A DNA stretch of 64,000 nt, taken from Bacteroidales bacterium (GTDB taxonomy: Bacteria > Bacteroidota > Bacteroidia > Bacteroidales > ML635J-15). The position numbers and the translations under genes were made by a program. The first letter of the stretch is position 1. Each line of letters begins with the position of its first letter. The notes beneath the pieces are model-generated. The model saw only the letters and a list, made by a program, of their open reading frames with translations. It did not search any database and was not told where the DNA came from. Location of the stretch: the NCBI GenBank assembly GCA_963676165.1, contig OY781043.1:3769342-3833341 (forward strand). Reading direction: 5' to 3'. This document shows positions 2,923-35,546 of the stretch, one piece after another.

Positions 2923-3037
2923 TAATCACAGCTAAAATTCAAGTTGACAAACAATAAATGCATCCAATTGTTAGTTGTTTTGATGCAGCAATTTTGAGTT
3001 TAAGAACTTATTAATAATAAGGTATCATTTAATTTCA

Positions 3038-3045
3038 TAGTTTTG
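3038..3045 (+). promoter_or_regulatory. Bacteroidota-type -7 promoter box (TAGTTTTG)
   Basis: Matches the TAnnTTTG consensus and lies 18 nt upstream of the ATG at 3063. Confidence 0.4.
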
Positions 3046-3062
3046 CATCAGAAATAGAAATT

Positions 3063-3350
3063 ATGGCAGGAGGATTTTTTAAAATACCGAACCATTCAGT
3101 GTTCAACTATCAACCGGTTTTTTACGACCCGGAAAAAGAGCGTCGTGAAAAAAAACGTCGTCAGTTGCGAATGGAGCAAGGTAAAGACCCTGATATTGAT
3201 GATGATGCGAGTACAGAAGATCGTATTCGTGGGCGTATGTCTGCTTATCGCATTAAACCGGTAAAAAAGGCAAAACGCGCATCGAATCTCAGGTTACTTG
3301 TCATTTTTGGCATTCTATTATTACTCACTTACGTCATTTTAGCGTTATAA
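3063..3350 (+). CDS. hypothetical tail-anchored membrane protein
   Basis: 95 aa with a basic/acidic N-terminal part and one C-terminal TM helix (LLVIFGILLLLTYVILAL). Its stop lies 2 nt before the mutL start. Confidence 0.45.
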   Translation: MAGGFFKIPNHSVFNYQPVFYDPEKERREKKRRQLRMEQGKDPDIDDDASTEDRIRGRMSAYRIKPVKKAKRASNLRLLVIFGILLLLTYVILAL

Positions 3351-3352
3351 TT

Positions 3353-5179: not shown

Positions 5180-5941
5180 TTGATTATGAATTTATTTGGA
5201 AGAGGATTTAGCATAAATATGACACCAGTTGTGAAAAACTTGGTAATCATTAATGTAGCCATGTTAGTAGCGACATATTTAGCAGAAAATTTGTTCATGT
5301 TCAACCTCACAGAAAAACTTGGTTTATTTTATTTTGATTCCAACTATTTCAACCCATTACAAATTGTTACACATATGTTTATGCATGGGGGTATTGGTCA
5401 TATCTTTTTTAACATGTATGCTTTGGTGATTTTTGGAAACGTTTTGGAACAAACCTGGGGTGGAAAACGCTTTCTGATTTATTATCTGGTTACAGGTCTA
5501 GGAGCTGCATTATTGCACAACTTAGTAAATTTTATTCATGCACAAACCATTATTTCCAATATAAGCCCTGATGATTTAAACCTTGTTATTAGTGAGGGAA
5601 GAGAAGCACTTCTGAACTATAAGAATTTCATTAATCCTCAACTAGCCGACCTTAACTTGATTTATAACATTCCTACCGTTGGAGCATCAGGAGCTGTTTT
5701 TGGGGTTTTATTAGCCTTCGGAATGCTTTTCCCCAATGTAAGATTGCAAATGATTTTTCCTCCAGTATCTTTAAAAGCAAAACATTTAGTCATTGGATAT
5801 GGCGTTTTGGAATTATACCTCGGATTAACTCAACCAGGAAGCAATATTGCCCATTTTGCTCACCTAGGAGGTATGCTGTTTGGCTTTATTTTGATTAAGA
5901 TTTATAAGAAAAATCAGTTTAATCAAAACCGTTGGAACTGA
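5180..5941 (+). CDS. rhomboid family intramembrane serine protease
   Basis: Multi-TM protein with the catalytic GASGAVFG motif and a downstream HFAHLGG histidine motif. Confidence 0.85.
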   Translation: MIMNLFGRGFSINMTPVVKNLVIINVAMLVATYLAENLFMFNLTEKLGLFYFDSNYFNPLQIVTHMFMHGGIGHIFFNMYALVIFGNVLEQTWGGKRFLIYYLVTGLGAALLHNLVNFIHAQTIISNISPDDLNLVISEGREALLNYKNFINPQLADLNLIYNIPTVGASGAVFGVLLAFGMLFPNVRLQMIFPPVSLKAKHLVIGYGVLELYLGLTQPGSNIAHFAHLGGMLFGFILIKIYKKNQFNQNRWN

Positions 5942-21650: not shown

Positions 21651-23030
21651 TTAAAAATTACAATTGGGACTCAACGAGTTACCAACTCCAATTTCTTCCG
21701 GTTTTATGTCAAATTTAGCCATTTGTTTTTTAATTCTTTTAGCGATTCCCATTTTTCTTTTTTGATCAAGGAATAAATATTCTGTTGGGGGATTATATGG
21801 CACTTGCTTTACGACCATTGTCCAAATTATAGTGGCAAGCTTTCGAGCAGTCGCACTTACTGCTGCTTGTCGTCCTTTCCTATAAGCAATTCGATTAAAG
21901 AAATCAGACATATGAGTGTCTTTTAAATTCCCGATTGCATTTGCTGAATGCCGGAGTGCTATTTTTAATCTGCTACTCCCCTTGGGGATTCGATTACTCA
22001 ATACTTTTCCTCCTGATATTTTATTGTTCGGGGCAAGCCGTAACCATGAACAAAACTCCTTTGCTGTTTTAAACTTTTTAAATCCATCAATTCCAACCTC
22101 ACTCATTATTGCCATTACGGTTGCATGACTTACTCCTTCTATTGCCATTAAATCAACGCCTCCAAAATATTGAAAAGCAATTTGATTGAAGTTTTTAATG
22201 TCAATCGCATTTTTATTAATCCGCTTATATGGCTTATCTGTTGTTTTAAGCTTTTGTTTTTCCGGATTCTTTCGTATTTCTTTTTTAATTAATCGCTCAA
22301 TCTCTTTATCGCATGCTTTGATTTTCTTTTGAAAAAATTTGTAGCTGTCAAATTCCTGCTTTAATCCCAATAAATAGTCTTCTCTATTATTTCCATGCAA
22401 AGCTTTGGCTATTTCTTCTTTGGGCTTTCTGCAATTATAGTGTCGGTGTTCTGCTAATGAATATGGATCAAGATTCCCATTACAGATATCAGCAATGATT
22501 TTGATTCCTGTAAGCCCGCAAATATCATTTACCACAACATCTAAACGAAAGTTCAAAAACTTAAGGTATTTTGCCATTTTATGGGAGGCGCTTGATGCTA
22601 AATCAATCCAATTAGCCCTTTGACGGCAATAGGTCCGTAATGTTTCTGTGGTCTCATCGGGAAGAAAGCTACCCGAGAGCAATCCCAAAGAATGAAGTTG
22701 TTGAATCCAACGACTATCTTTTACATCTGTCTTTTTCCCTTTTGCATTTTTTGTAAACTTTCCATTGCACAAAATAACCTCAATGCCATGTTTTTGCAAT
22801 TCCACATATAAATTTTGCCAATAATCACCTGTTGATTCCATTGCTACTGTGGTAATATCATATGAAAGCAACCATTTGCAAAGTTTCACCAGATCTTCAG
22901 CATAAACACCAAATTCTTTTACATCTTCTAATGATTGCCCTACTGCAACAAAATGAGATCTGCTACCCACATCAATACCTGCTGCATTGTGATTTACAAT
23001 CTCCATTTCAATTTTCTTTTTCCTTGCCAT
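21651..23030 (-). CDS. IS110 family transposase (DEDD recombinase)
   Basis: N-terminal RuvC-like DEDD motifs (AAGIDVGSRSHFVAV, AMESTGDYW, DVKDSRWI) and a C-terminal Transposase_20-like HhH region (LMAIEGVSHATVMAIMSEVG ... ISGGK). Confidence 0.9.
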   Translation of the reverse strand: MARKKKIEMEIVNHNAAGIDVGSRSHFVAVGQSLEDVKEFGVYAEDLVKLCKWLLSYDITTVAMESTGDYWQNLYVELQKHGIEVILCNGKFTKNAKGKKTDVKDSRWIQQLHSLGLLSGSFLPDETTETLRTYCRQRANWIDLASSASHKMAKYLKFLNFRLDVVVNDICGLTGIKIIADICNGNLDPYSLAEHRHYNCRKPKEEIAKALHGNNREDYLLGLKQEFDSYKFFQKKIKACDKEIERLIKKEIRKNPEKQKLKTTDKPYKRINKNAIDIKNFNQIAFQYFGGVDLMAIEGVSHATVMAIMSEVGIDGFKKFKTAKEFCSWLRLAPNNKISGGKVLSNRIPKGSSRLKIALRHSANAIGNLKDTHMSDFFNRIAYRKGRQAAVSATARKLATIIWTMVVKQVPYNPPTEYLFLDQKRKMGIAKRIKKQMAKFDIKPEEIGVGNSLSPNCNF

Positions 23031-23245
23031 ATTTTTTCATTTTAATTCGTAAAATGACTCTAAGGAAATGTATCTTTGAATCGAGAAATATTCTGAACGG
23101 GGTCTTCGCTTAATGCGAGCCACCACTGGATTTATCAACAGGCCTCTGAAGTGAACTTTCAGAGGCTTTTTACATTTCAACCAGAATTACGCACGGGCTT
23201 TTTAAGCACCATTTAAAAGATCGGTCATACATAGAGTCGGCATAA
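21656..23245 (-). mobile_element. IS110-family insertion sequence (boundaries approximate)
   Basis: Similarity to copy A stops after ...CTAACGTTAAAAATTA (21660) and resumes near 23248. There are no terminal inverted repeats, as is usual for IS110. It has a long 5' non-coding end and almost no 3' end. Confidence 0.6.
23031..23245 (-). ncRNA. candidate IS110 bridge (guide) RNA in the left non-coding end
   Basis: The roughly 215-nt non-coding leader upstream of the recombinase is where IS110-group elements encode the bridge RNA. It contains a strong 9-bp hairpin (23141-23165). No covariance model was run. Confidence 0.25.
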
Positions 23246-23399
23246 AAATAGCAGAACTTTTCTTTCAAACACCCTCCTTCGTTAGCAAAAGGATTTAATC
23301 TGAGCTGGAGGAATAGATAACTTAAGTTTAAATCTATTTGGGAGGTTCTTATGTGGGGAATGTCTTGTCCTGAAATATGGCTACAGGTTAAACATACGA

Positions 23400-24260
23400 T
23401 TAAGCTCTATATTTAAACACCATATTAGGGGTTTTATAATTCAAAGATAAGTGTAATCTTTTATTATTATATATGCTGATAGCATTTTTAGTAGCGACTT
23501 TAGCATTTTTCAGGCTAAAGAAGCATTGATCGAGATAAAATTCTTCTTTAAGAATTCCATTAACTCTCTCAGCTATAGCATTTTCATAACAATGATTTTC
23601 TTCTGTCATACTTATCTTAATATTTCGTTTTTTTAATTCTTTTACATATTGATTACTACAGTATTGTATTCCACGATCAGAGTGATGTACTAATCCCGCC
23701 GCTGGTCGGGCATGCCACAGAGCCTTTTTGAGGGCTCGTAGGCAGCCCGCCAGCTCCAGTGAGTTGCTAATATCATATCCAACGATTTTCCTGGAATACA
23801 TATCAGTAATAAGTGCTAAATAACAAAAACCATTAACAGTTCTGATGTATGTAATATCAGATACCCAAACTTGATTAGGAGCAGTAACAGTCATGTCTTT
23901 CACAATGTTTTTATACTTGTGAAAACGATGATAAGAGTCTGTAGTTCTGCAGGATGCTTTTTTACGTTTTATAAGCATATTGTTGTCTCTGAGAATATCA
24001 AAAAGCTTATCTCTACCAACTTTAATACATCTCTTTTCAAAAATTGTATTTAGAGATTTATAGAGTTTTTTTGTTCCAACTCTTGGCTGTTCAATCCGTT
24101 CATTTTTCACAAGTTCAAGAACCTGATTTTCGACGTTTTCTCTTTTAAGTTTACGCTCTATAAATTTATAATAAGCATCTCTGTGCATACCAAAGCACTG
24201 GCAGGTTTGCTCAATGCTTGCCTGCCTTGTGTGCTTAATTTTTTCCACTGCCTTAACCAT
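23400..24260 (-). CDS. IS3 transposase OrfB (rve/DDE integrase core)
   Basis: DDE core motifs WVSDITY, HHSDRGIQY and NAIAERVNGILKEE. It lies in the -1 frame relative to OrfA. Confidence 0.9.
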   Translation of the reverse strand: MVKAVEKIKHTRQASIEQTCQCFGMHRDAYYKFIERKLKRENVENQVLELVKNERIEQPRVGTKKLYKSLNTIFEKRCIKVGRDKLFDILRDNNMLIKRKKASCRTTDSYHRFHKYKNIVKDMTVTAPNQVWVSDITYIRTVNGFCYLALITDMYSRKIVGYDISNSLELAGCLRALKKALWHARPAAGLVHHSDRGIQYCSNQYVKELKKRNIKISMTEENHCYENAIAERVNGILKEEFYLDQCFFSLKNAKVATKNAISIYNNKRLHLSLNYKTPNMVFKYRA

Positions 24261-24262
24261 AC

Positions 24263-24628
24263 TTAGATGTTTAAGTTTTTTTTTAGCTCTTCGACATCTT
24301 TATATCCCAGTTTTTCAGCTGCGACTTCAAGATATGAATCAGATGCTAATTTGTCTAAGTCTTTCTTAATCAATAACTCTTTGAGTTTTTTGATTTCTTT
24401 TTGTAAGGCTTTGAGTCTGGTTGTTTCGTCTTGAGTTTCCACTAATATACGAGTATTCATTAAATCTTTCCGGTTGTACTTTTTGATCCATTCGTTTATG
24501 GTAGTTCGGTTAATACCATAAATTTCACCTAGTTTTTTCTTTGAATAATTTCCAGTACTAAGTTCGGCTAAAATTTTCAATTTAAAACCTTCACTGTAAC
24601 GTTTTGTAATCCCATCATTTTTATACAT
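24263..24628 (-). CDS. IS3 transposase OrfA (HTH + leucine zipper)
   Basis: 121 aa with an HTH (LGEIYGINRTTINEWIKKY) and a coiled-coil C-terminus. Confidence 0.9.
   Translation of the reverse strand: MYKNDGITKRYSEGFKLKILAELSTGNYSKKKLGEIYGINRTTINEWIKKYNRKDLMNTRILVETQDETTRLKALQKEIKKLKELLIKKDLDKLASDSYLEVAAEKLGYKDVEELKKNLNI
24276..24284 (-). promoter_or_regulatory. programmed -1 ribosomal frameshift site (A9 run) of IS3
   Basis: The minus strand reads CTA AAA AAA AAC near the OrfA end. The -1 frame from this run is open and continues into OrfB (KKKLKHLSMVK...). Confidence 0.65.
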
Positions 24629-24802
24629 AATTTACTACATATTGTGTAGCCAGATTTTAGGACGGGTCAGAATTGCCCACAACGGTAAATTGTATGAGTA
24701 GTGGCAGATTGCGGGCTACTTTCCTGTCAAACCGCTATGCAGTTTGAGCGGGTTACAAACCTTGATGTTTACCACTTCGCCTGCCATTACTTATACAAAG
24801 TG

Positions 24803-25855
24803 TTACAGGGCGTTTTTATCTATTTCTATTCTATAAATCAAGTCGATAGGTTCAGGATATTTTAACGGAATATATTCTATTGCGAAAGGCAAATTCAATT
24901 CGCAAGCCGTATCAACATCTTTCTCTAACAAATCATTCTCTTGGCAATATTGAATTACCAATTTCATATAATTTCTCAATATCTGCAAGGATGGAAATCT
25001 CCCTTGCTTAGTCAACCACTCCATTAAGTCCGTGTCATTTTTTGAGGCATTACATTTTCGACAAGCCCAAACAAGATTTTCACCAGTGTCTTTCCCTCCT
25101 TTATTTCTTGGAATTATATGGTCAAGTTGTAAATTTCTTGTCTTACCGCAATAAACACAGCACTTGTCAGAATTTAATTTTGATTTCTCATCGTGAAACA
25201 ATGACCCCATATTCATTTGTCCAGACATCAATCCTTTAAATAGTCTTTGTCTGATAGCAAAATGATTTCTATTATATCTTTCAGTGTCATCCTCATTTGC
25301 TCTATATGCCATCGCTAAATTTGAATAAGACCAAAATAAAACGTCCTTAATTTTCTTGTATTCTCTTTTTGTCGATTTTCCGACAAAAGGATTTATTTTA
25401 ACTGGATATTTTGATTTATCTATGGAATACGGAACTCTCGGTTCTTTTCTTCTTTGTTCTCGGTCTTTCTCCGATTCAATTAACTCAGTTGCTATCTCTA
25501 ATCCTATTTCCGTTTCAAACTCAATTTGAGTGCGTGCCCACATTCCAATTTTAATTATCCAATTAATTTCCTCTGATAAATGATTTCCGAATAGTTTTTT
25601 ACAATTCTGGCAGGCAGGAAGTGAATTTTCGGCTGAATCTATCTCACTGAATGGAGTCGAAACACTAAATTTCTTATCGTCTAATTTCTCACCGCATATA
25701 TGACAGATTCCAGAAGTCTTTTCGAAAACCAATTGTTTTTCCGCTTTTCTCAAAGCTTTGGATTTTTCTTTTGACTTTGATTTATGTCGCAATTCACTCA
25801 ATCGTCTGAATTCTGCAAATAAAATTTCTTTGTCATCAATATATGGTAATTCCAT
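24803..25855 (-). CDS. HNH endonuclease with a degenerate N-terminal HNH-like zinc ribbon
   Basis: The C-terminal HNH motif is CVYCG...LQLDHIIPRNKGGKDTGENLVWACRKCNASKND. The N-terminal CHICG...CQNCKK ribbon lacks the catalytic D-H. No RuvC motifs. Confidence 0.8.
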   Translation of the reverse strand: MELPYIDDKEILFAEFRRLSELRHKSKSKEKSKALRKAEKQLVFEKTSGICHICGEKLDDKKFSVSTPFSEIDSAENSLPACQNCKKLFGNHLSEEINWIIKIGMWARTQIEFETEIGLEIATELIESEKDREQRRKEPRVPYSIDKSKYPVKINPFVGKSTKREYKKIKDVLFWSYSNLAMAYRANEDDTERYNRNHFAIRQRLFKGLMSGQMNMGSLFHDEKSKLNSDKCCVYCGKTRNLQLDHIIPRNKGGKDTGENLVWACRKCNASKNDTDLMEWLTKQGRFPSLQILRNYMKLVIQYCQENDLLEKDVDTACELNLPFAIEYIPLKYPEPIDLIYRIEIDKNAL

Positions 25856-25962
25856 CTTGTTGCGTCGTTTGTTTAAATGCCCTGTAACTCGTTTATCCCC
25901 TCACAAAACCTAACGAATACATCCAATATTTGTCATATATCTATAGGTTTGTTTGCTTCCTT

Positions 25963-25970
25963 CAAATATA
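25963..25970 (-). promoter_or_regulatory. -7 promoter box (TATATTTG on minus strand) upstream of the HNH gene
   Basis: TAnnTTTG match about 108 nt upstream of the ATG at 25855. Confidence 0.3.
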
Positions 25971-26070
25971 AACAAAATCGATGAAAAAAGCAATTGCTTA
26001 TTTATTTTATTTGGTAAATTGTCAAAAAGCTTGTTGTAGAATGCTTCTGAAGGCATTGAAAAAAGACTCC

Positions 26071-26205
26071 AACGCATAGGAAAAGCAGGCAGACAAACCG
26101 TTGAGAAATATTACTCAAGACATGCTTGGGAAAATAAATGGGTGGAATTTTTTAATCATGTGAGTTCAGATTTTCATTAGTAAGTGAACCCTAAAAGCCA
26201 AAGTG
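26071..26205. repeat. 135-bp direct repeat, right copy (candidate attR)
   Basis: Identical to 15781-15915. It supplies the last 9 codons and stop of the ATPase gene at 26177-27370. Confidence 0.95.
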
Positions 26206-27370
26206 GAATAATATTTTCTGAACCTATTTCAATATCATCTTTGATAACCCATGAGTTTTCAATATCTTTTATTTGCTGTTTCGACTTATTTTTGCCACCA
26301 ATTTCAAAATGATACTTCTCGTCCAACATAAAATCAACCTGCTTTGAAGCTGAAACTTGATGGTTTTGTTGTAATTGATTGAAAAAGAATGTCTCTCGAA
26401 CATTACCAGTATCCGGTTGCTGATCTGAAAGTGCAAACATCATATTGGAGTTATTGATATAAATTTTCTCAGGTTTATTCAAACTATTAATCCCTCTGTT
26501 TGCTGACTTCAATAAACTCAAAATTTCAGCATCATGCATAAGATACAAATACTGTTTAAGTGTATTTATGCTAATTCCTGTACGACTGCTCAATGAAGTC
26601 ATATTCGGTTTAAAAGGCACACTATTACTAAGAATCTGCAATAGCTTTTTCAAGTAATAAATATTTGCAGAAGGAATATTTATAAATTGAGGAATATCAA
26701 CTTCCAATATTGTTAAAATAACCTCTTCAAGTTTTCTGTGAAACGATATTTTATTTTCAATATAAAAAGGATAATAACCATGTAATAAATAGTCATTAAA
26801 ATATGCTAGTGGTTTAATTTGATTTTTAATTTGGAAGCCAATTTCCACATGATTTTTTAGAATATCTTTTAATTTATAAGATTCAAATTCATAAACACCT
26901 TCAAAGCTTAGATATTCACGAAAAGAAAGTCCTGGCATGTGATATATAACCGCTCTACGACTTAAATCTGCTTTTGCTTTTTGAAAATGTAATAATGACG
27001 AACCTGTAAAAATTATTTTCAGGTCAGAAAAATCATCATATATATTTTTTAACTCAATTGCCCAGTTATTATACCTATGAATTTCATCTAAAGCAAGCAA
27101 TCTACCACCTTTCATATAAAACGCTGAAGCAAGGTCATAAAGACGATTTTCAGTGAAGTACAAATCATCAAGGCTAACATATAGTACATTATCGAGTACT
27201 TTGTATTGCTGCTTTATATACTGAAGAATTAATGTTGTTTTACCAACACCTCTACTCCCCTTAATTCCAATCAAGCGATTTTTCCAATCAATGATATCTT
27301 TAAAATCTCTAACTGTTTCAAGATTTACTTCAGATAACTTAGTATAGAATTTTTGTATTAGCTCATTCAT
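26177..27370 (-). CDS. AAA+ ATPase (AAA_14 + DUF4143-like, COG1373 type)
   Basis: Walker A GSRGVGKTT and Walker B LLALDEIH. Paralogous along its length to 58219-59406 (shared ...KDDIEIG...IPLW..G..Y C-terminus). Confidence 0.8.
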   Translation of the reverse strand: MNELIQKFYTKLSEVNLETVRDFKDIIDWKNRLIGIKGSRGVGKTTLILQYIKQQYKVLDNVLYVSLDDLYFTENRLYDLASAFYMKGGRLLALDEIHRYNNWAIELKNIYDDFSDLKIIFTGSSLLHFQKAKADLSRRAVIYHMPGLSFREYLSFEGVYEFESYKLKDILKNHVEIGFQIKNQIKPLAYFNDYLLHGYYPFYIENKISFHRKLEEVILTILEVDIPQFINIPSANIYYLKKLLQILSNSVPFKPNMTSLSSRTGISINTLKQYLYLMHDAEILSLLKSANRGINSLNKPEKIYINNSNMMFALSDQQPDTGNVRETFFFNQLQQNHQVSASKQVDFMLDEKYHFEIGGKNKSKQQIKDIENSWVIKDDIEIGSENIIPLWLLGFTY

Positions 27371-27458
27371 GATTATTCATTTTAACAAAAATACTAAATT
27401 TATCAATGCATTGACAGTTTTTAAAATATATTTATCAATACGTTGACAGTTTTGCGAC

Positions 27459-28679
27459 TTAAAAACTCCATTTCCCTCGCAAAAAGGCATAAGTTCCACC
27501 GCCACCTTCATTGGTTGGGATATCGCTAAAGAAGCTTTGTGCAGTAATATCAAACATGAAATTTTTGGAAATGGAAAAAGAGCATGCCGGTCCTACATAG
27601 GTGAAATTATTTTGTGGTGAATACATACCTGAGAAACTAAGATTGATTAGAGGCGATATCGGATAGGTAAAATTTGCAAAGAAAGTCCAACGATTATAGG
27701 AAAGATTTTTCGCAGAAATCCGTTGGGTATAAAAATCGGATAAATTGAATGGTCTATCCTTATCAATCGCTGAGTTAAACATTACTTCAGCTTGTATCAT
27801 GCTACCATTTTTAAAGCTATAATCGGATCCTATACTGGCAATAAATGTTCCATTACTATCTGCAGCATACTCAATTGGATGAAAATATGACACTTCTCCT
27901 CTCAAGGCAGCATTCCACAAATTTCCTGACCACCCCATGCCGGCAACATAATCTTCGCTATTAAAAACACCTGCCAAAACTTGGATATCGTATTGCCATT
28001 TATTGAATTGATAGAGTGCTGCAGCAGTCATATTGGTATCTCGATTAACAGCAGCAGCAATTTCTAAGCGAGAGGCATAATTCAGATAGTACTGCGCACG
28101 GAAGGCATCGCTGCCGGGTTTTTCTTCGTAATCGAAATCAAAATACGAATAGGCGTTAAAAATATCGTTGGGATTCCAGACAAAACTCTGTCCCCAATTA
28201 ATACGCTGTCGCCCAGCAGTAATGTCCCATTTTCCTTTTTGAAATTTCAGAAAAGCCCTGTCAATACTGGTATTTAGAAAATAGGAATCTCCTTTTATCA
28301 CATTGTGATTGAGATTGAAAAAGCCAGAATCAAATTCTGTTTCATCCACAAAATTATAAGTGCCTGCAGCTCCTAAAAGTGCATTAAATGGTGGCTGTGA
28401 AAATGTAACCATCTCACCAAAATATAAACGATTTCGTAAAGACACTTGTGCACTAAGGTAATTTTTTGAATAATAGGCAATATCAAAGCGATTGTGAATA
28501 AGGGAATTTGTTATCCACATACTGTCAAGCTCCTGAAAAGAAATCATTTCCATATATTTAACATAGCCATTTACGACCAGTTTATTTTGAGCTTTTCCAC
28601 TCATGCTTATGATGAGTAAAAATGGGATCAATAGGTATAACTTTTTCATAGGTCTCGCTTTGCTATATTTCAATTTCAC
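27459..28679 (-). CDS. outer-membrane beta-barrel protein (last gene of the Lol-like operon)
   Basis: Signal peptide, alternating hydrophobic beta-strand pattern rich in aromatic residues, and a C-terminal ...RGKWSF ending in Phe. Confidence 0.6.
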   Translation of the reverse strand: MKLKYSKARPMKKLYLLIPFLLIISMSGKAQNKLVVNGYVKYMEMISFQELDSMWITNSLIHNRFDIAYYSKNYLSAQVSLRNRLYFGEMVTFSQPPFNALLGAAGTYNFVDETEFDSGFFNLNHNVIKGDSYFLNTSIDRAFLKFQKGKWDITAGRQRINWGQSFVWNPNDIFNAYSYFDFDYEEKPGSDAFRAQYYLNYASRLEIAAAVNRDTNMTAAALYQFNKWQYDIQVLAGVFNSEDYVAGMGWSGNLWNAALRGEVSYFHPIEYAADSNGTFIASIGSDYSFKNGSMIQAEVMFNSAIDKDRPFNLSDFYTQRISAKNLSYNRWTFFANFTYPISPLINLSFSGMYSPQNNFTYVGPACSFSISKNFMFDITAQSFFSDIPTNEGGGGTYAFLRGKWSF

Positions 28680-28688
28680 TCCAAACTT

Positions 28689-29372
28689 TTAACGACTTTC
28701 ATCCGATTTGATTTTTCCATCTTCAACGGTAATAATGCGTCTTGCTTTATTCACTACGCGCTGATCATGTGTGGAAAAGATGAATGTAATGTTCTCTTTT
28801 TCATTCAGCTCCTGCATAATATTTAGCAAGTTTTCAGTGGATGCTGAATCTAAATTTGCTGTTGGTTCATCGGCGAGTATAAACTTTGGACGCGAAGCCA
28901 ATGCCCTTGCTACAGCGACACGTTGCTGCTGTCCTCCGGACATTTTTCCTGGACGACTTTTTAAGCGATCACCTAAGCCTACAGCTTCAAGCATTTCAAT
29001 AGCACGCTGCTCCCGTTCTTTCTTATTCCATTTTTGCATCTGCATTATGAATTCCACATTTTCTTTGGCTGTCAATACCGGAATTAAATTGTATGCTTGA
29101 AACACAAATCCAATATTTTTTAATCGAAAATCAATGATTTGCTTATTGCTCAACTCTCCTATTTGAACGCCATCAATAATCACTTCGCCTTCTGTTGGTT
29201 TATCAAGACCTCCAAGCATATTCAAAAGTGTGGTTTTTCCTGATCCTGAAGGACCCACAATGGCAGTAAATTCACCTTGTTCAATTTCTAAATTTATACC
29301 ATTAACAGCATGGACAGGAATTTCGCTTCCGTTATAAATTTTATGGAGATTTTTGGTTTCTATAATTTTCAT
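28689..29372 (-). CDS. ABC transporter ATP-binding protein (LolD/MacB-type)
   Basis: Walker A GPSGSGKTT, signature MSGGQQQRVAVARAL and Walker B ILADEPT. Confidence 0.92.
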   Translation of the reverse strand: MKIIETKNLHKIYNGSEIPVHAVNGINLEIEQGEFTAIVGPSGSGKTTLLNMLGGLDKPTEGEVIIDGVQIGELSNKQIIDFRLKNIGFVFQAYNLIPVLTAKENVEFIMQMQKWNKKEREQRAIEMLEAVGLGDRLKSRPGKMSGGQQQRVAVARALASRPKFILADEPTANLDSASTENLLNIMQELNEKENITFIFSTHDQRVVNKARRIITVEDGKIKSDESR

Positions 29373-29390
29373 GATATCTGGTTTTTAAAA

Positions 29391-30614
29391 TTAATTACTA
29401 CTGATAATTTCAGCCGGTTTCATTTTTCCGGCGCGTAATATTGGGAAGATCGCAGCCACCAAAGCTGTCACAATAACCAAGGCAACAATTTGCAGATAAA
29501 AACTCGCATTGATTTCCGGATAAAGTACTGCGCTAAACCCAAAGGAAGAAAATCCCTCTGCGTATTTACTTAAATCGATGCCATTTCTTGCGGTTAAGCT
29601 TACCAAGACTTGATTTAGCGCCAAGCCTGCAAAAGAACCAATGGCAGTTAGGAAAAGGGTTTCCAAAATAATCATACGACGAATTTTGCCTTGATGCATT
29701 CCCACAGCCATCAACATGCCTAGTTCTTTTTTCCGTTCTAAAATTGACATAAGCATGGTATTGATGATACCGAAAGCCAAAGCAAACATAATGATTGCAA
29801 CTAAATACCAAAGGAACTGCTCTGTCATCATGTTCATCATTCCGAGATCAGGATTAATTTCTTTCCAATTTTTCCCTTCAAATTGCCCAGGTAAAAGCTT
29901 TCCAAGTTCTGCACTACGCTCTACTAGGTCTTCATTATCGACAAATCGGGTAATTATTTCATGAGAATCTTCAGGAGAAAATCCTGCAATAGACTCTAAA
30001 TCTGATCGTTTCACAAAAACATGAAACTGGTCATACATAGTATTGTCCGTTTGATAAATGCCCACAATCCGATATGCTCCACCAGTTAAATCTCCATTAT
30101 TTCCTAAAAATGTAATGACAGGTTTTGAGCGCATTTTAATTTTTAATTCCTCCGCCATTGTGCTGGAAATGATGAGTTGATTTTTTGTGTCACTATCAAA
30201 ATAACTGCCTTCAATGATTGCGTTTTCAAGCTCAGTGACTTTCATCTCATCTTCGGGATTAACCCCGATTAAAACTGCTCCTGTATTTTGATAGGCAGAT
30301 GCTATGCTGCAATCAATTTTAAGTCGAGAGCTGCTTGCCTCAACAAAATCCTTTTGGTTGATCTGAGCCAGTAGAAGGTTAACATTCTGCATGTAATTTC
30401 CAACTTCAGGATTGTCTAAAAACCCTTGCATATGCACCTGATAATGCGATGATTCTATGTCTATGGCTTTATCTATTCGCTGATTTACTGCTCCTATCAT
30501 AACGGCAGTCGAAAAACCACCACCTATCATTCCAAATGTCACGGCAATAATTACCACAAGACTACGCGAAGGGTTTCTCCAAATATTTCGCCAAGCTATT
30601 TTTATAAGTTCCAT
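29391..30614 (-). CDS. ABC transporter permease (FtsX/MacB-type)
   Basis: N-terminal AWRNIWRN TM helix, a large periplasmic domain and a C-terminal 3-TM FtsX domain. Confidence 0.88.
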   Translation of the reverse strand: MELIKIAWRNIWRNPSRSLVVIIAVTFGMIGGGFSTAVMIGAVNQRIDKAIDIESSHYQVHMQGFLDNPEVGNYMQNVNLLLAQINQKDFVEASSSRLKIDCSIASAYQNTGAVLIGVNPEDEMKVTELENAIIEGSYFDSDTKNQLIISSTMAEELKIKMRSKPVITFLGNNGDLTGGAYRIVGIYQTDNTMYDQFHVFVKRSDLESIAGFSPEDSHEIITRFVDNEDLVERSAELGKLLPGQFEGKNWKEINPDLGMMNMMTEQFLWYLVAIIMFALAFGIINTMLMSILERKKELGMLMAVGMHQGKIRRMIILETLFLTAIGSFAGLALNQVLVSLTARNGIDLSKYAEGFSSFGFSAVLYPEINASFYLQIVALVIVTALVAAIFPILRAGKMKPAEIISSN

Positions 30615-30630
30615 AATTCTCTATTATTAG

Positions 30631-31845
30631 TTAACGAATGGCTTTTGATACATTAATTTTAAATACTGAAAGCAAAGGGTATGCTATGGCAAGTAATGCA
30701 ATAATAAGTATGACAATGGTTTGCCCGGTAAAATATCCTGATTCCCATGCAATCGGCATGATTGGTTCCATTCCATATGTGTTCATTATTTCTGCGACAT
30801 CTCCGGAAAAGTTGAGTGGATTGAGGTGGAGATAATACATCACAGGTAAACTTGCCCCAATAGCCAGTACAATTCCAACCATAACAATAAATAGTGTTTC
30901 GAGAGTTACCAATATTGCAAGTTTGGTTTTCTGCATTCCTACCGATACCATGATGGCAAACTCTTTTCGTCGCTCAGCAATCATCATAAGCACAGTACCG
31001 AATATTCCGAATCCTATGACGATATAAAGTATCATTAGAATAATCATACCACTGGCATTATCGGCTTCTATACCTTGTAAAATTTCCGGAGACATGGTTT
31101 CCCAATGCATTACTTCATAATCATCAGGTAAAATAGTTTCAATCTGAGTAGTTGTTTCTTTAAAGAGTTCATTATCTTCCAACATGACAACCCACGCAGT
31201 TAAACCTCCATACAGACTTAAATATTCTTGGGCGACTTGAATGTCCATGTATGAAATTTGACGGTTAATTCTTGGATCAGGATAGGAAATGACTCCCAAA
31301 ACAGGATACAATCCGGCAGCCGAGAATCCATGATAACCTTGCCCAATATAAACGGCAGTATCCCCAACTTTAAGATCCAAATATGTGGCCAATTGCTCAC
31401 CAAGAACAACACCAGATTCTCCTGTTTTTGGAAATCTTCCAGCGATAAGCTTATCTTTCAATTTGGTTAACTGATCATCTTTCTCCGCATCAATACCCAT
31501 AATCATGGCAGGCTTCGATTTCTTATCGGTCGCAATGAGAGAACCACCTTGAAGACGAGGCAAAAGATCAGCCACATTCTCCTGCGCTAAAATCAGGCTT
31601 TTTAAACTGTCATTTACAAAAAAACTGTTATCTAAAATTTGATCGTCCTGATATCCATCGGCATGAATTTGGACATATCCACTGTAATACTCTACTGAGT
31701 TTTTCACCATACTATCGTATGTTCCCAGTTGTAGTCCCCGCATCAGTATTGCCAGGAACAAGGCAAAGAAAACCGAAGAAACTGTAATCAGTGTTCGTTT
31801 TCTATTCCTCCATATGTTTCGCCATGCAAGTTTTGTGTAGTTCAT
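30631..31845 (-). CDS. ABC transporter permease (FtsX/MacB-type), second copy
   Basis: Same architecture as 29391-30614 (LAWRNIWRNRKRT..., periplasmic domain, FtsX C-terminus). Confidence 0.88.
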   Translation of the reverse strand: MNYTKLAWRNIWRNRKRTLITVSSVFFALFLAILMRGLQLGTYDSMVKNSVEYYSGYVQIHADGYQDDQILDNSFFVNDSLKSLILAQENVADLLPRLQGGSLIATDKKSKPAMIMGIDAEKDDQLTKLKDKLIAGRFPKTGESGVVLGEQLATYLDLKVGDTAVYIGQGYHGFSAAGLYPVLGVISYPDPRINRQISYMDIQVAQEYLSLYGGLTAWVVMLEDNELFKETTTQIETILPDDYEVMHWETMSPEILQGIEADNASGMIILMILYIVIGFGIFGTVLMMIAERRKEFAIMVSVGMQKTKLAILVTLETLFIVMVGIVLAIGASLPVMYYLHLNPLNFSGDVAEIMNTYGMEPIMPIAWESGYFTGQTIVILIIALLAIAYPLLSVFKINVSKAIR

Positions 31846-31851
31846 GAGATT

Positions 31852-31914
31852 GATTGCTAATTGCTAATTGCTAATTGCTAATTGCTAATTGCTGATTGCT
31901 GATTGCTGATTGCT
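31852..31914. repeat. heptamer tandem array (ATTGCTA x5, ATTGCTG x3, ATTGCTA x1)
   Basis: Nine contiguous 7-bp units read directly from the sequence, lying between the permease start and the four-helix-bundle gene stop. Confidence 0.95.
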
Positions 31915-31949
31915 ATACTTCGAAATTAATCAGTGTAAATTTTTGTTTG

Positions 31950-32321
31950 TTAATATTTAAGGTTTTTTTGAGTTAATAGAATTAGCACATTAATTTCTTT
32001 TAATATTTCATCAATAAGTAAATTCAACTCTTTATATTGCTCTTCATTAATTAGATTTCTTCGGTATGATTTATTAAGCCAATCCATACATTCAAATCCT
32101 GAACCTCTTGAATATCTATAAAAATTGATTTTGTCTTTTTTAAAATGTCTCCCTTGACTTTCTGCAATATTTGCGGAAATTGAATCTGCTGCTCGTGTAA
32201 ATTGTGAACCTATTGTTTTCTTTTCAAAGCTTCCCCATTTAGAGACAAATTCCCACACTGTATCTGAAAACTCAGTTGCTTTTTGGTAGGCAGGGATGTC
32301 TGTTATTTCAAATATTTTCAT
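31950..32321 (-). CDS. four-helix-bundle protein (23S rRNA intervening-sequence protein / Avd-like family)
   Basis: Family-typical core QFTRAADSISANIAESQGR. The start is moved to ATG 32321 (MKIFEITD), because the ORF-track extension translates the heptamer array. Confidence 0.8.
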   Translation of the reverse strand: MKIFEITDIPAYQKATEFSDTVWEFVSKWGSFEKKTIGSQFTRAADSISANIAESQGRHFKKDKINFYRYSRGSGFECMDWLNKSYRRNLINEEQYKELNLLIDEILKEINVLILLTQKNLKY

Positions 32322-32323
32322 GA

Positions 32324-32393
32324 TGTTACTTGTTGATTGTTGATTGTTGATTGTTTTTTTATGTTCAATAGACAATTAGCTATTAGCAATTGA
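32324..32393. repeat. heptamer arrays on the other side of the four-helix-bundle gene
   Basis: TGTTACT, TGTTGAT x3 and TGTTTTT at 32324-32358, then CAATTAG CTATTAG CAATTGA at 32373-32393. The latter is the reverse complement of the 31852-31914 unit. Confidence 0.85.
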
Positions 32394-32403
32394 CATTTAA
32401 GTT

Positions 32404-33147
32404 TCATCTAATCCGTTTCATATTCATTTGACTAAAGAATGCCTCTGTTAAATCAAAATTAAAATCAACTTCTTTCATAGTCATGATGGTTTTGTGACCT
32501 TCTTTGTCTTCAGGAATGGTTTCAAAGCAAGTTGTAATTTCTTCACCACCCATTACTTTTACATCAGAAGCAATTTCAGTTTTTACGAGATAATTATCCT
32601 CATCGAAATACTCCGTTTTAAACATGTGTTTCCCATTTTTAGAAATTAATGCAACAATTTTCCCCCATACAACAGGTGCATCTGGGTGAGGAATAAACTC
32701 TATTTTCCAGCATTCATAGCCGTCATGTGTTTCTGTTCCTAGGATTTTGTGTGTATAATCGTTGACAATACTCGCTTGATTGATTAAATCATCGTTCGTA
32801 AAATCTGAACCCATCCAAGATTGCATCATCATTGAAGGAGGAAGCTTAATCATTCGATTAATTTTTGGTTGCCAATTCCACATTTCTTTATCACGCTTCA
32901 TGAAAACTTGTCCCTTTTCTTGTGCTGGCGCTGAGATATATACCATGGAATAATCCATTCCCAAAGCCCAAGTTTTCATACTGATACTTCGTGTCCAATT
33001 CGGACGAACAATTTCCATCGTCATTTCAATGTAACTCGATGTCCCATTGACCTTCTCATACGATTCACGTACAATTTCAGTGGCATCCTGTGCTTGCACA
33101 AAATATCCTGTTAACAACACATAAATTAGAATACTTAATTTTTTCAT
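32404..33147 (-). CDS. outer-membrane lipoprotein-sorting protein (LolA-like fold)
   Basis: Signal peptide plus family-typical WNWQPKINRMIKLPPSMMMQSWMGSDFTNDDL. Confidence 0.8.
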   Translation of the reverse strand: MKKLSILIYVLLTGYFVQAQDATEIVRESYEKVNGTSSYIEMTMEIVRPNWTRSISMKTWALGMDYSMVYISAPAQEKGQVFMKRDKEMWNWQPKINRMIKLPPSMMMQSWMGSDFTNDDLINQASIVNDYTHKILGTETHDGYECWKIEFIPHPDAPVVWGKIVALISKNGKHMFKTEYFDEDNYLVKTEIASDVKVMGGEEITTCFETIPEDKEGHKTIMTMKEVDFNFDLTEAFFSQMNMKRIR

Positions 33148-33158
33148 AATCTGCAGTT

Positions 33159-33737
33159 TTAATGAGATTCACTTGAATAATGAGCAATTATTTTGTCTCT
33201 TAATTTATCGATATTCATCACTTCGGGAGCAAAAGCATATTGCATTAATGCACCTTTGAGTAAAGATGAAAAATAGACTAGTTCAGTTTCCATATCATCA
33301 GGGTACTGTTTTGAAAAGTAGGAATAAAATAAGCCCATGATATTTTGAGAAATTGTTCCTAGCTTAGTCTGTATAATTTCCAACATCTTAGGCTGCAATA
33401 ACAAACTAAACATGAGCTTCCAAAATTTTTGATTGGCTTTGACGTTCTCAAATACATCATAAATAAATTGAATAAACTCCTCATGGCTGATTTCACCATC
33501 ATGATTGGCATCAAAATCACGATATATCTCTTTTACAGCATTAAGTACAATCTCAGATAACATCTTATCTTTACTCTCAAAATAGTTGTATAGATTTCCT
33601 TTTGATATACCAACTCCTTTCGAAATTTTCGCCATAGATACTGTATCATATCCTTCACTCGAAAATAAATTGAGCGATACATCCATGATCTTTTTTCGAG
33701 TCGCCTCTTTCTGCTTTGTTTTTACATTCTCTTTCAT
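33159..33737 (-). CDS. TetR/AcrR family transcriptional regulator with an EF-hand loop
   Basis: HTH VSMAKISKGVGISKGNLYNYFESK, with DANHDGEISHEEF in the ligand domain. The start is moved to ATG 33737 (MKENVKTK). Confidence 0.85.
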   Translation of the reverse strand: MKENVKTKQKEATRKKIMDVSLNLFSSEGYDTVSMAKISKGVGISKGNLYNYFESKDKMLSEIVLNAVKEIYRDFDANHDGEISHEEFIQFIYDVFENVKANQKFWKLMFSLLLQPKMLEIIQTKLGTISQNIMGLFYSYFSKQYPDDMETELVYFSSLLKGALMQYAFAPEVMNIDKLRDKIIAHYSSESH

Positions 33738-33745
33738 AATTTCAC

Positions 33746-33769
33746 TGACTGAACGGTCAGTCAAATATA
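33746..33769 (-). promoter_or_regulatory. candidate TetR operator palindrome overlapping a -7 box
   Basis: TGACTGA-ACGG-TCAGTCA (33746-33763) lies 9 nt upstream of the tetR ATG. On the minus strand, TATATTTG (33762-33769) abuts it. Confidence 0.5.
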
Positions 33770-33899
33770 CAGCAGTCAAATATCAATTTCCAAATATTTT
33801 TTGTTAAATTTCATCACTATCCGATAAAAAAATAAAATCACTTCTTTGATCTTACAAACACCTGATAAACTGTGAATTGTATTTTTGATACAATGTTTT

Positions 33900-34760
33900 T
33901 GGACAGTAAGCCACCTAAAACAAAGTTGATTGCATTAATTCGTCATATGTTTTTTGCCAATCTTTGTCTGGATTTTCAAGGAGTTTGAGCAGATAAATGT
34001 AATTAACGTGAATTCGATCTAAGAAATCCAAATCAGCTTCAAAAGATTTTTTCATATCAAATGAAATTTTTGAAAGACTATCGGGATAATTTGAGAAAAT
34101 TTCATGAACGAATATGGGGAAATATTTGAAGCCTGTAAAGGAAAGTCATTTTAATACCATCTTTTGCCTAAAAAATCCTTGAAGTAACCCGTTACTACTT
34201 CGTATTTTGTTAGGCTAAATCTGACATCAAAATGACTTTCTGTTTTAGATTTCTTACGTCGAACTCACGTTAATTGAATAAATGAATCTTACAAAAACTG
34301 ACCAAATTTGAAAAAGCCCACTATCTTTTTAACATTTTCTGGACAACTGTCATTATTAGGTTTGCGATTAGAACACAGTATAGGACTCATTGTCTTTTAT
34401 TTCGTGTAACAAAACCTGACTTGCTTGAGTAAGTTTATTAAAAATTTATAATCATTGTATCCTTTATCAAAAACGTAGATTGTGTTTGAATCAATATCGT
34501 TTTCTAAAAGCACAAATAGATTTTGATTACAGAACTCCTCCAAACCATTTTGGGCACAGTTTCATCAACATTAATTACCGTATGGAGTTTTATTCCACCC
34601 TTCTTTTTTCCATTTTGAGGATTCTGCCCAAATTCCTTTGTAAATGTCGAGCATAGGGATGTATCTCTTTGATTTCAGACAATTGATTGCAATACTTACT
34701 CAAAAAATTTAGCATTAAGCTCTTCACATATAAATCATTCACTAACTCTTTAAAAAGCAA
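33900..34760 (-). pseudogene. decayed DDE transposase (IS4/IS5-like) remnant
   Basis: The minus-strand translation gives DSNTIYVFDKGYNDYKF (34448-34498) and ...WAESSKWKKEGWNKTPYG..., resembling WAEFRKTKGGIKLHT-type IS4 transposases. It is broken by several stops and frameshifts. No ORF of 60 aa or more. Confidence 0.6.
34000..34277. mobile_element. MITE-like element inside the transposase remnant
   Basis: 35-bp terminal inverted repeats (34001-34035 versus 34241-34275, 30/35 match), no ORF, and a flanking direct repeat ATAAATG (33993-33999 and 34278-34284). Confidence 0.5.
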
Positions 34761-34970
34761 TTATTATAACTGGATTTTTTCAGATTAAATTTGCATATTT
34801 GAACTTTATAATGAGCTTACAAATAGACGTATTTAAAAGTCACACTTCAATTCGTATTATTTGAACAGCAAGTTAAAACAACAACACTACCTCTTTGTTA
34901 TATTGACAAATAGGTAATTTAAAACTCTCAATTTAAACATACATTTAGAATTTTTTTGAGGAGAAATAAT

Positions 34971-35546
34971 ATGTTTAGACATCCTTGCTTAATTTTTATT
35001 TTGATAGGTTTCGTGTTTTCAAACCAATGCATGTCGCAATCTGACGAAGACACTTTTAATAAATATTTTAAAATAAATTCGTCTTATGTTTTTGGTGGTC
35101 AAATTTATAATGACGATTTCTTGTACAATCCCGGTTATACAATTCAGTTAAGCCATGGATATAATGTTTCAAAAGGCATTTTTCTAGGTCTGGGCTCTGG
35201 TTTTATTAATTTGAAAGATCATCAGTTTGTCCCTGTTTTTATTGAGATCACAGGCGACAAAAAAAAGAAATCAAATACCCCGTTTATAAAATTTCAAGGT
35301 GGTTATTCTTTTGCTTTCGATAAATCTGCAATTGAATTGAAAAACTATGATTTGTCCGGAGGCATTTACGTTAACATGGGTCTGGGACATCGTATTGAAT
35401 TAAATGATTCATTTTCATTATTATTCGAGTGTTCATATTGCCATCAGGCTTCAAAAATGGAATATCAACTATTCAATGATAACAATTACACACAGGCTAT
35501 GAACTATGATTATATCATGCTATCTGTTGGGTTAATAATTTTATAG
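34971..35546 (+). CDS. small outer-membrane beta-barrel-like protein
   Basis: Signal peptide with a G/Y/F-rich alternating pattern. The start is moved to ATG 34971. Confidence 0.45.
   Translation: MFRHPCLIFILIGFVFSNQCMSQSDEDTFNKYFKINSSYVFGGQIYNDDFLYNPGYTIQLSHGYNVSKGIFLGLGSGFINLKDHQFVPVFIEITGDKKKKSNTPFIKFQGGYSFAFDKSAIELKNYDLSGGIYVNMGLGHRIELNDSFSLLFECSYCHQASKMEYQLFNDNNYTQAMNYDYIMLSVGLIIL

Follow-up and report, generated by a model that had tools for sequence, protein, structure and literature searches.

Open reading frames (ORFs) of the PF05635 family are carried by intervening sequences (IVSs) in the 23S rRNA of Coxiella burnetii and of Leptospira (Ralph and McClelland 1993, as cited in PMC4990558). 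In Coxiella, three or four GACAGAT heptamers, in a number that varies between strains, stand directly 5′ of the ORF, and the element has a 28-bp terminal stem within which recombinant Coxiella and E. coli RNase III both cut in vitro (PMC4990558). PF05635 is also the commonest Pfam family next to the reverse transcriptases of diversity-generating retroelements (DGRs), and is structurally related to the DGR protein Avd (PMC10053308). Independently described are intergenic heptamer arrays (TAACTGA) near start codons in Beggiatoaceae, Cyanobacteria and some Bacteroidetes (PMC4679880). Here we analysed a PF05635 gene, flanked on both sides by tandem heptamers, within a 64,000-nt stretch of a Bacteroidales genome (contig OY781043.1, positions 3,769,342 to 3,833,341; the whole stretch is hereafter the window). 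We favour, with moderate confidence, the reading that this gene and its repeats form a promoterless cassette, kin to the ORF-carrying 23S rRNA IVSs, that is lodged between two mRNA cistrons and looped out of their transcript.

The small ORF separates a LolA-like gene from the first FtsX permease gene in an operon whose genes are all on the minus strand. The cassette and the two genes that flank it are arranged as follows, in the order in which the RNA would be read.

32404..33147, minus strand: upstream host gene, LolA_like, 247 aa (PF17131, E 3.9e-50), with its stop codon at 32404-32406
32365..32400, minus strand: 5′ arm, antisense-type, of AATTGNN-like units, the RNA reading ...GUCAAUUGCUAAUAGCUAAUUGUCUAUUG... 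(placed by duplex, ensemble and minimum free energy (MFE) fold)
32324..32358, minus strand: proximal sense-type array, CAATCAA x3.7 on the RNA strand, directly 5′ of the cassette ORF (Tandem Repeats Finder (TRF) 32330-32355, 100% matches)
31950..32321 (stop codon counted in), minus strand: cassette ORF, 123 aa, four-helix bundle, PF05635/TIGR02436 by profile matches
31916..31949, minus strand: non-repetitive spacer of 34 nt from the ORF stop to the downstream array, read from the sequence
31853..31915, minus strand: downstream sense-type array of nine heptamers, in RNA UAGCAAU, CAGCAAU x3, UAGCAAU x5 (TRF score 105)
31856-31892, minus strand: predicted 3′ arm of the stem, within the downstream array
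30631..31845, minus strand: downstream host gene, first FtsX/MacB_PCD permease (PF02687 and PF12704), with its ATG at 31845-31843

On the forward strand, TRF reported ATTGCTA x9.0 at 31853-31915 (score 105), TTGTTGA x3.7 at 32330-32355 and CAATTAG x2.7 at 32373-32391. Read as RNA, the order is the antisense segment, 3.7 CAAUCAA units, the ORF, the 34-nt spacer and nine UAGCAAU/CAGCAAU units, the last of which stops 7 nt short of the permease ATG. The antisense-type segment, AAAUGUCAAUUGCUAAUAGCUAAUUGUCUAUUG on the minus strand, begins at the fourth nucleotide past the LolA-like stop and includes 32373-32393, which is the reverse complement of the downstream units at ~19 of 20 positions (by eye). 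TRF and period-7 scans of the 64-kb window found CAAT-core arrays of period 7 around the cassette gene only, and the window holds no second PF05635 ORF. A period-8 match at 62115-62144 falls inside a coding region and was set aside as unrelated.

The pairing potential of these segments was assessed by duplex and ensemble calculations. The 5′ segment is predicted to form a duplex of -30.1 kcal/mol with the downstream array, compared with -9.1 ± 2.9 kcal/mol for shuffled 5′ segments (best of 300, -23.3) and -7.6 kcal/mol for its duplex with the proximal array. In the partition function of the 558-nt RNA, the 5′ segment makes 25.5 expected pairs with the downstream intergenic spacer and array and 1.0 with the proximal array, and the MFE fold contains the same long-range stem between 32365-32400 and the downstream array. 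The predicted stem (32365-32400 with 31856-31892) has ~30 bp and leaves 3 nt unpaired past the host stop and 10 nt before the host start. Because it spans from just past the LolA-like stop to 10 nt before the permease ATG, the ORF would be looped out. Terminal complementary sequences that enclose the insert, as in an IVS, are therefore present here as a predicted stem, and one that dominates the ensemble.

In the clade to which the window belongs, the heptamers are mostly direct repeats in sense orientation on both sides of the ORF, and only the ~35-nt 5′ segment is inverted. This segment is near-identical by eye in the window, in locus L004 and in the metagenome loci L088/L087, whose flanking genes are only ~75-77% identical in nucleotides. 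An earlier note on this DNA, made from the sequence alone, had described a four-helix-bundle gene bracketed by inverted heptamers that could pair into a long stem, as in rRNA IVSs. Every feature that it described is present, save that the ORF has 123 rather than 124 codons for amino acids and the array ends are shifted by one base. Its family assignment holds, with PF05635/TIGR02436 matches above the cut-offs and four helices in the AlphaFold2 model, and so does its observation that 32373-32393 is the reverse complement of the first array. The inversion that it proposed applies to the 5′ segment and not to most heptamers, which are sense-oriented direct repeats; the long stem round the ORF is nonetheless predicted (~30 bp, -30.1 kcal/mol), and the geometry does match the Coxiella IVS, with its RNase III-cut 28-bp stem and heptamers just upstream of the ORF (PMC4990558). 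That the cassette might cleave or insulate the transcript, as the note suggested, is here an inference. The note had also seen no reverse transcriptase or DGR repeats nearby; we likewise found no reverse transcriptase among ORFs of at least 150 aa, and no DGR repeats in scans that were made for tandem repeats.

Proteins of the PF05635/TIGR02436 type are abundant in Bacteroidota and Cyanobacteria, often in many copies per genome, and are annotated just as 'four helix bundle protein'. The literature that we found gives no function to standalone members. The cassette ORF scores 97.1 bits against PF05635 (cut-off 33.8) and 93.1 bits against TIGR02436 (cut-off 24). Its AlphaFold2 monomer model (mean confidence, pLDDT, 94.9) is an up-down bundle of four helices, at residues 10-26, 31-56, 61-87 and 93-120. 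The best Foldseek matches are XCC0516 (2gsc, TM 0.81-0.94) and BT_0352 (2rld, TM 0.73-0.86), each with five chains per entry; Avd follows (4dwl, TM 0.76/0.86 at 7% identity), ranking together with chains of DGR ribonucleoproteins (8ube, 8ub7; 7-10% identity). The Xanthomonas member of the family is a homopentamer (PMC4990558). Comparison with the ORFs of L004, L088 and L001 gave dN/dS of 0.04-0.11 at dS of 0.5-1.0, and the cassette protein is under strong purifying selection. No defence-system model of PADLOC-DB matches it, and no relative was found on viral contigs with the query patterns used.

To assess how general this layout is, a subfamily profile scan was run on one genome per species, which gave 555 confirmed loci; the best 80 (46-56% identity) were kept, from Bacteroidota, Ignavibacteria, Omnitrophota, Planctomycetota, lineages of the candidate phyla radiation and others. 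Short-period arrays lie within ~100 bp of both ORF ends at nearly every locus, mostly with a period of 8 nt (7 nt in Pontibacter and the window clade), and the units on the two sides of the ORF are reverse complements of each other across related loci. RNAduplex energies of the 130-nt flanks discriminated poorly, because the controls were also very negative, and were replaced by local alignment scores. By this measure, flank complementarity exceeded the 99th percentile of distal controls from the same locus in 69 of 80 loci (median score 16.2 versus 7.5). Arrays with a CAAT or CCAT core numbered 131 within 200 bp of PF05635 ORFs (74 kb) and 22 in the other 476 kb, a ~38-fold enrichment beside these genes; most of the 22 distant arrays are tight inverted pairs lacking an ORF.

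Cassettes are co-oriented with both neighbours in 67 of 75 cases and antisense to both in four, with median gaps of 62 and 52 nt. For cassettes embedded in sense (58), the median start of the 5′ arm is 0 nt past the upstream stop (interquartile range (IQR) -4 to 15). The 3′ arm stops short of the predicted downstream start by a median of 5 nt (IQR 0 to 14); as that start was taken to be the first in-frame ATG, GTG or TTG, the distance may be understated. The neighbours themselves are unrelated housekeeping genes (LptB-like|GH3, GH3|Dxr, Gfo-family|PdxB-like, HD|aconitase-family). To judge from neighbours that agree in length and domains, cassettes appear to hold one site across genera within a family, for example in Pontibacter/Adhaeribacter and Mucilaginibacter/Pedobacter.

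The repeat unit has the consensus A-R-C-M-A-T followed by two variable nucleotides; two core positions that the search pattern left free were A in 94% and R in 92% of cases. The modal array length is four units, and in ~19 of 68 loci (by eye) a G comes after the last core, giving an ATG that in several appears to be the start of the downstream gene. The two arms of a locus resemble each other: their core types correlate (rho 0.64, p 2e-7), and the identity of their spacer dinucleotides is 0.088 across loci and 0.217 within loci, the latter value being reached by 0 of 2000 permutations.

The arrangement extends to distant members of the family. Copies on cyanobacterial plasmids are 32-37% identical. 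In a type I-D CRISPR-Cas operon on plasmid pANA02 of Anabaena sp. 90 (NC_019429.1 42786-46133), a PF05635 gene separates cas6 from cas4; its upstream flank has ~17 GGTGACA/GGGAACA units (by eye) and its downstream flank TGTCACC x4. Since cas4 is annotated to start upstream of the array, the ATG that immediately follows the array may be the real start. In Nostoc punctiforme, AGTCAGG x5 fills the interval from the upstream stop to the ATG; no arrays were seen at a Pseudanabaena copy. As the Anabaena, Nostoc and Coxiella elements share the arrangement with other units, the architecture spans subfamilies and the unit sequence differs between them.

Loci with the same LolA-like/FtsX junction, or with closely related cassettes, were compared for presence of the ORF and for array length. 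The states at this junction are listed below, with the LolA-like identity to the window.

L003, L004, L005: ORF present (89% aa identical); ~5 antisense-type units, ~9 sense units, the ORF and ~20-25 sense units
L088 (LolA-like 83%): ORF present, with long sense arrays on both sides
L087 (LolA-like 83%): ORF-less; the 5′ antisense segment, then one continuous array of ~40 units (by eye)
L094, L089 (LolA-like 75%): ORF-less hairpin of another heptamer, GGTTAGG x5 / CCTAACC x6
L090 (LolA-like 67%): ORF-less; inverted ~9-nt repeats (by eye) around ~100 nt
L091, L092 (LolA-like 50-52%): distant PF05635-like ORF, with no arrays
L093 (LolA-like 50%): empty junction, ~30 nt

Upstream, the metagenome contigs Ga0307990_1000677 (L087) and Ga0307929_1000714 (L088) share 99.7% identity over 3240 nt, and downstream 100% over 1742 nt; they differ by the ORF and part of the arrays. 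It follows that this ORF is an insert that the operon can do without, lost or gained through breakpoints in the direct arrays. Copy number is also variable: L003 and L004 differ by exactly 35 bp, that is, five heptamers, and the proximal array has ~9 units in L004, ~25 in L088 (by eye) and ~34 in L001 (by eye). A 90%-identical ORF occurs in L001/L002 in another gene context, after a hybrid kinase/response regulator, between sense arrays of ~240 bp upstream and >270 bp downstream; it is nearer to the window ORF (87.9% nucleotide identity) than are the same-site copies (84.7-84.9%). The cassette of L014 occupies the FtsX|ABC junction of a homologous operon. The ORF of L091 (1290-1413) and L092 (1326-1721) has 132 aa and matches the family over its full length below threshold (PF05635 25.5 bits, TIGR02436 E 5e-4). 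The hairpin of L094 (398-560; also L089 1905-1976) is built of telomere-like heptamers, GGTTAGG x5, a 19-nt loop and CCTAACC x6, which are unrelated to the CAAT type.

These comparisons bear on what the earlier note had said about the origin of the cassette. Its claim of an insertion into the operon is borne out by absence of the cassette from the 99.7-100% identical allele (L087 versus L088) and from the distant L093. The word 'selfish' tells half of it: the ORF has dN/dS of 0.04-0.11, and related cassettes appear to keep their site across genera. The note had named two observations that would speak against it. Relatives that carry the gene at this site without arrays do exist in part, in the form of the distant PF05635-like ORF of L091/L092, and some arrays do occur independently of the gene (L087, L094 and other ORF-less pairs), set against their ~38-fold enrichment beside PF05635 genes.

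Taken together, these results suggest a model in which the cassette acts at the level of RNA. Its transcription would come by read-through from the promoter of the operon; within 31600-32600, neither a sigma-70-type promoter nor an intrinsic terminator was matched, by a promoter scan that does not cover Bacteroidota promoters. The antisense-type segment right after the upstream stop would pair with the sense-type array right before the downstream start, so that the ~0.5-kb insert would be looped out on a ~30-bp stem and the host stop and start would stand ~13 unpaired nucleotides apart. By analogy with the rRNA elements, the stem would be a likely substrate of RNase III, and cleavage would free the cassette RNA and split the flanking cistrons. 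The sequences show the anatomy, the predicted pairing, an insert present or absent at one site, variable copy number, a general layout and purifying selection on the protein; read-through, formation of the stem in vivo, its cleavage, any effect on how the flanking cistrons are coupled or how stable they are, and the role of the protein are inferred. Arms made of tandem repeats could slip, pair in several registers and change length fast. In the window lineage, sense-type units would have expanded on both sides of the ORF, and recombination or slippage between these sense arrays would delete, and in principle re-insert, the ORF. There is direct support for the arrays acting at the DNA level when the ORF is gained or lost, which is compatible both with an RNA stem and with a protein-binding site.

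The sense array may also have a part in translation. Initiation in Bacteroidota is favoured by A-rich unstructured leaders, A at position -3 and few nearby AUGs (PMC6847099). The sense array is G-poor and A-rich and so, once unpaired, would be compatible with a role in the leader of the downstream gene, which we offer as speculation.

Several observations weigh against the looped-out cassette. As a whole, its fold is no more stable than those of shuffles (z -1.25), a value that is unremarkable because the ORF dominates the fold. For the 5′ segment of L088 and of L004, the arrays before and after the ORF are equally good pairing partners, and L001 has direct arrays only, with no inverted segment at all. 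The arms are imperfect (~76% identity over ~46 nt at relaxed scoring), and their mismatches show no G·U bias (135 of G·U type, 180 of A·C type) and so lend no support to selection on a duplex in the sense RNA. Concerted evolution of the DNA could account for the co-variation of the arms. Across phyla, the protein subfamily keeps the 6-nt core of the unit, which is more than pairing alone calls for. Finally, the LolA-like gene contains a TAnnTTTG motif (32454-32461), which makes an internal promoter of the Bacteroidota type possible; genome-wide, the motif is no commoner than chance.

The conserved core, the imperfect arms lacking a G·U bias, the alternative pairing in L088 and L004 and the arrangement in L001 keep alive the view that the repeats are primarily cognate binding sites of the cassette's own protein, probably a pentamer, with arm pairing secondary. 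On this account, which survives best among the alternatives and which we nevertheless consider rather unlikely, the protein would read tandem A-R-C-M-A-T units on RNA or DNA, the candidate repeat being (AACAAUNN)n or its complement, much as TRAP reads triplet repeats or as iterated sites are read in transposon ends. Consistent with it, the core is constant across host phyla within one subfamily while one or two spacer nucleotides vary, distant subfamilies have other units (those of Cyanobacteria; GACAGAT in Coxiella), and the ORF-less hairpin at the same site in L094 uses an unrelated unit (GGTTAGG/CCTAACC). The entries of the relatives 2gsc and 2rld contain five chains each, the Xanthomonas protein is described as a homopentamer (PMC4990558), and the homologue Avd is found in DGR ribonucleoprotein structures (8ube, 8ub7). 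Against it, protein distances do not track period or core type (rho 0.04): the window clade has an identity of 0.49 to other period-7 loci and of 0.49 to period-8 loci. The period has switched from 8 to 7 at least twice, once within an apparent orthologous site (Adhaeribacter L038 versus Pontibacter L030), and the modal array has four units, not five.

Doubtful, and less credible than a binding site, is a mobile element that acts at the DNA level, in which the inverted arrays would be terminal inverted repeats or recombination handles and the RNA stem a by-product. The presence or absence of the ORF between near-identical strains, with breakpoints inside the arrays (L087/L088), could be read in this way, as could the 90%-identical ORF of L001/L002, which stands in another context among the same unit types and is closer to the window ORF than are the same-site copies. 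ORF-less inverted array pairs resemble remnants or landing pads, and up to three PF05635 ORFs occur in 6.3 kb (L047). Yet a four-helix bundle is all that is encoded, with no transposase or recombinase fold. Target-site duplications were not evident at the outer array ends inspected in 68 loci, ends that are hard to define. The sense bias (67 versus 4) and the stop-to-start fit point instead to constraints at the level of the transcript, and since the cassettes seem to be site-stable across genera, any mobility would be low.

We regard it as very improbable that the arrays are ordinary slippage-prone intergenic simple sequence repeats (SSRs) whose nearness to a four-helix-bundle gene is without functional meaning. 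Such heptamer arrays are documented just 5′ of start codons (PMC4679880), unrelated ones occur in the loci that we retrieved (GGAATAG x16 in L086, CAGATAA x10 in L013), and copy number does differ between samples; against this stand the ~38-fold enrichment beside PF05635 ORFs, the inverted layout in 69 of 80 loci with its per-locus co-variation of the arms, the conserved 5′ antisense segment of the window clade, and the confinement of such arrays in the 64-kb window to the cassette gene. Hardly more credible is a working accessory of the LolA-like/FtsX/ABC transporter whose expression the repeats would tune: the gene is kept at the junction in the window, L003-5 and L088, a distant PF05635-like ORF occupies it in L091/L092 and the L014 cassette lies at the FtsX|ABC junction of a homologous operon, but an ORF-less allele has otherwise identical flanks (L087), the junction is empty in L093 and bears ORF-less hairpins only in L094 and L090, and related cassettes lie between unrelated genes, including cas6|cas4.

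Other candidates were rejected. With no reverse transcriptase among ORFs of at least 150 aa between 15982 and 49279 (~16 kb either side), a DGR was dropped; no template/variable repeat pair was seen in the tandem-repeat and period-7 scans, which were run with no dedicated search for dispersed repeats. No transposase, as of a DNA transposon or miniature inverted-repeat element, is encoded by the element or matches it, the four-helix bundle being its sole ORF. An integron cassette was considered with no specific test; the only integrase-like gene is an IS3-type rve 8 kb off. An assembly artefact was rejected, the same architecture being present in dozens of independent assemblies.

The operon and the region past its far end contain the following further genes.

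33779-33159, minus strand: TetR regulator, at the head of the operon
30614-29391, minus strand: second FtsX permease, operon member
29372-28689, minus strand: ABC ATPase, operon member
27459-28679, minus strand: 406-aa ORF after the ABC ATPase gene, with no Pfam match at E <= 0.001
26177-27370: AAA_14/DUF4143 ATPase, in the cluster past the operon
24803-25855: HNH endonuclease protein, in the same cluster
23400-24260: IS3-type integrase, in the same cluster
21651-23030: IS110-family transposase, in the same cluster

The TetR regulator (33159-33779) also matches an EF-hand calcium-binding motif at residues 82-106 (PF00036, E 1e-6), and a weak EF-hand match is likewise present in the L003/L004 orthologue. 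Just beyond the far end of the operon lies a cluster of mobile or defence-like genes (21651-27370), of which the IS110 and IS3-type genes (21.6-24.3 kb) are separate elements and not part of the cassette. In L004, a gene with AAA_14/DUF4143 matches directly follows the ABC ATPase; in the window, the 406-aa ORF comes first. An Rfam scan of 27000-35000 at E <= 1 gave no rRNA and two chance-level matches only.

Several further repeats and gene copies were seen in the related loci. An Ignavibacterium contig (L047) holds three PF05635-type ORFs in 6.3 kb (482-841, 2989-3366 and 4902-5294), and a second, weaker PF05635 copy lies within 3 kb in four more loci (L008, L044, L080, L081). Small GC-rich, hairpin-like inserts, such as ccctgagcgaagtcgaaggg and ccctgaaacaagttcaggg, occur in or beside AT-rich arrays and at intergenic junctions (L001 4395-4425; L013 ~130-165 nt 5′ of the cassette ORF; L014 290-380); they perhaps form a family of miniature repeat elements of their own. 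Unrelated heptamer arrays, some of them inverted pairs, are present at L049 4056-4273, L077 3865-4191 and 5076-5149, L086 212-326 and L013 1978-2050, with the units CGGTTAT/AACCGAA, TTGGGCA, GATGTTG/TTCGATC, GGAATAG x16 (L086) and CAGATAA x10 (L013). Hairpins built of arrays may thus be a wider phenomenon than PF05635 cassettes.

PF05635 ORFs in rRNA IVSs with terminal stems, the tandem heptamers of Coxiella, intergenic heptamer arrays and the structural kinship of PF05635 and Avd are already known. Of PF05635 genes outside rRNA that carry conserved inverted arrays from stop to start inside operons we found no description, nor, apart from the Coxiella heptamers, any account of repeat arrays flanking PF05635 genes, in a literature search that covered subscription journals thinly, so that an earlier description is possible. 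The window instance is one member of this group, and an unusual one in that most of its arrays are direct and its antisense arm is short and conserved. If the layout is general, the PF05635 family gains a defined cis-architecture (inverted arrays of 7-8-nt units, stop-to-start, sense in operons), which would join rRNA IVSs, heptamer repeats of the short tandemly repeated repetitive (STRR) type and Avd-fold proteins, usually handled apart, and would turn the role of the PF05635 protein into a question for concrete experiments. For annotation, the arrays can mislead start-codon calls, as for cas4 in Anabaena sp. 90, and they yield strain-level indels that break assemblies. A much bolder extension, which we think improbable, is that PF05635 genes outside rRNA and DGRs are a very large class of RNA-level 'loop-out' cassettes, in which an oligomer would read its own repeats and which would spread into transcribed stem-loops, possibly via an RNA intermediate and a reverse transcriptase in trans, and that this class is the common root of rRNA IVSs and DGR Avd.

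In other bacteria, stem-forming repeats between cistrons, such as repetitive extragenic palindromic (REP) sequences and bacterial interspersed mosaic elements (BIMEs), shape differential mRNA decay. The cassettes share with these elements stem-forming repeats between cistrons of one operon, and the ORF-less array hairpins of L050, L063 and L094 resemble them most directly; unlike them, these stems consist of short units in tandem, and many hold a conserved protein-coding gene in the loop. Cyanobacterial STRR sequences are intergenic tandem heptamer arrays, and long SSRs (LSSRs) were reportedly treated by Mrazek et al. in 2007. Like LSSR, STRR and TAACTGA arrays, those of the cassette are intergenic tandem 7-nt units of fixed orientation and variable copy number a few nucleotides from a start codon, here nine units ending 7 nt before the ATG, and like the TAACTGA type they occur in Bacteroidetes and Cyanobacteria (PMC4679880). 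They differ in being an inverted pair around one gene family, with arms that co-vary and a span from stop to start; 'S23', 'four helix' and 'intervening' are absent from PMC4679880, so no link to PF05635 was made there. With DGR Avd, the cassette protein shares the four-helix-bundle fold (4dwl, TM 0.76/0.86) at a sequence identity of only 7%, and no reverse transcriptase was found among ORFs of at least 150 aa in the ~16 kb to each side.

The closest likeness is to the ORF-containing 23S rRNA IVSs of Coxiella burnetii and Leptospira. The ORF is of the same family (PF05635, 'S23p'), it is enclosed by terminal complementary sequences, it would rely on host transcription in place of a promoter of its own, and, as in Coxiella, tandem heptamers whose copy number differs between strains stand directly 5′ of it. 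Excision by RNase III, shown for the Coxiella element, would be expected of the window cassette by analogy. The Coxiella ORF is reported to be decaying and not translated (PMC4990558); by contrast, that of the window clade is under strong purifying selection. Where an rRNA IVS sits in helix 25 or 45 of 23S rRNA, the window cassette lies between protein-coding cistrons; arrays of a 7-nt unit (8-nt in most relatives) make up its arms, and these arms abut a stop codon on one side and a start codon on the other.

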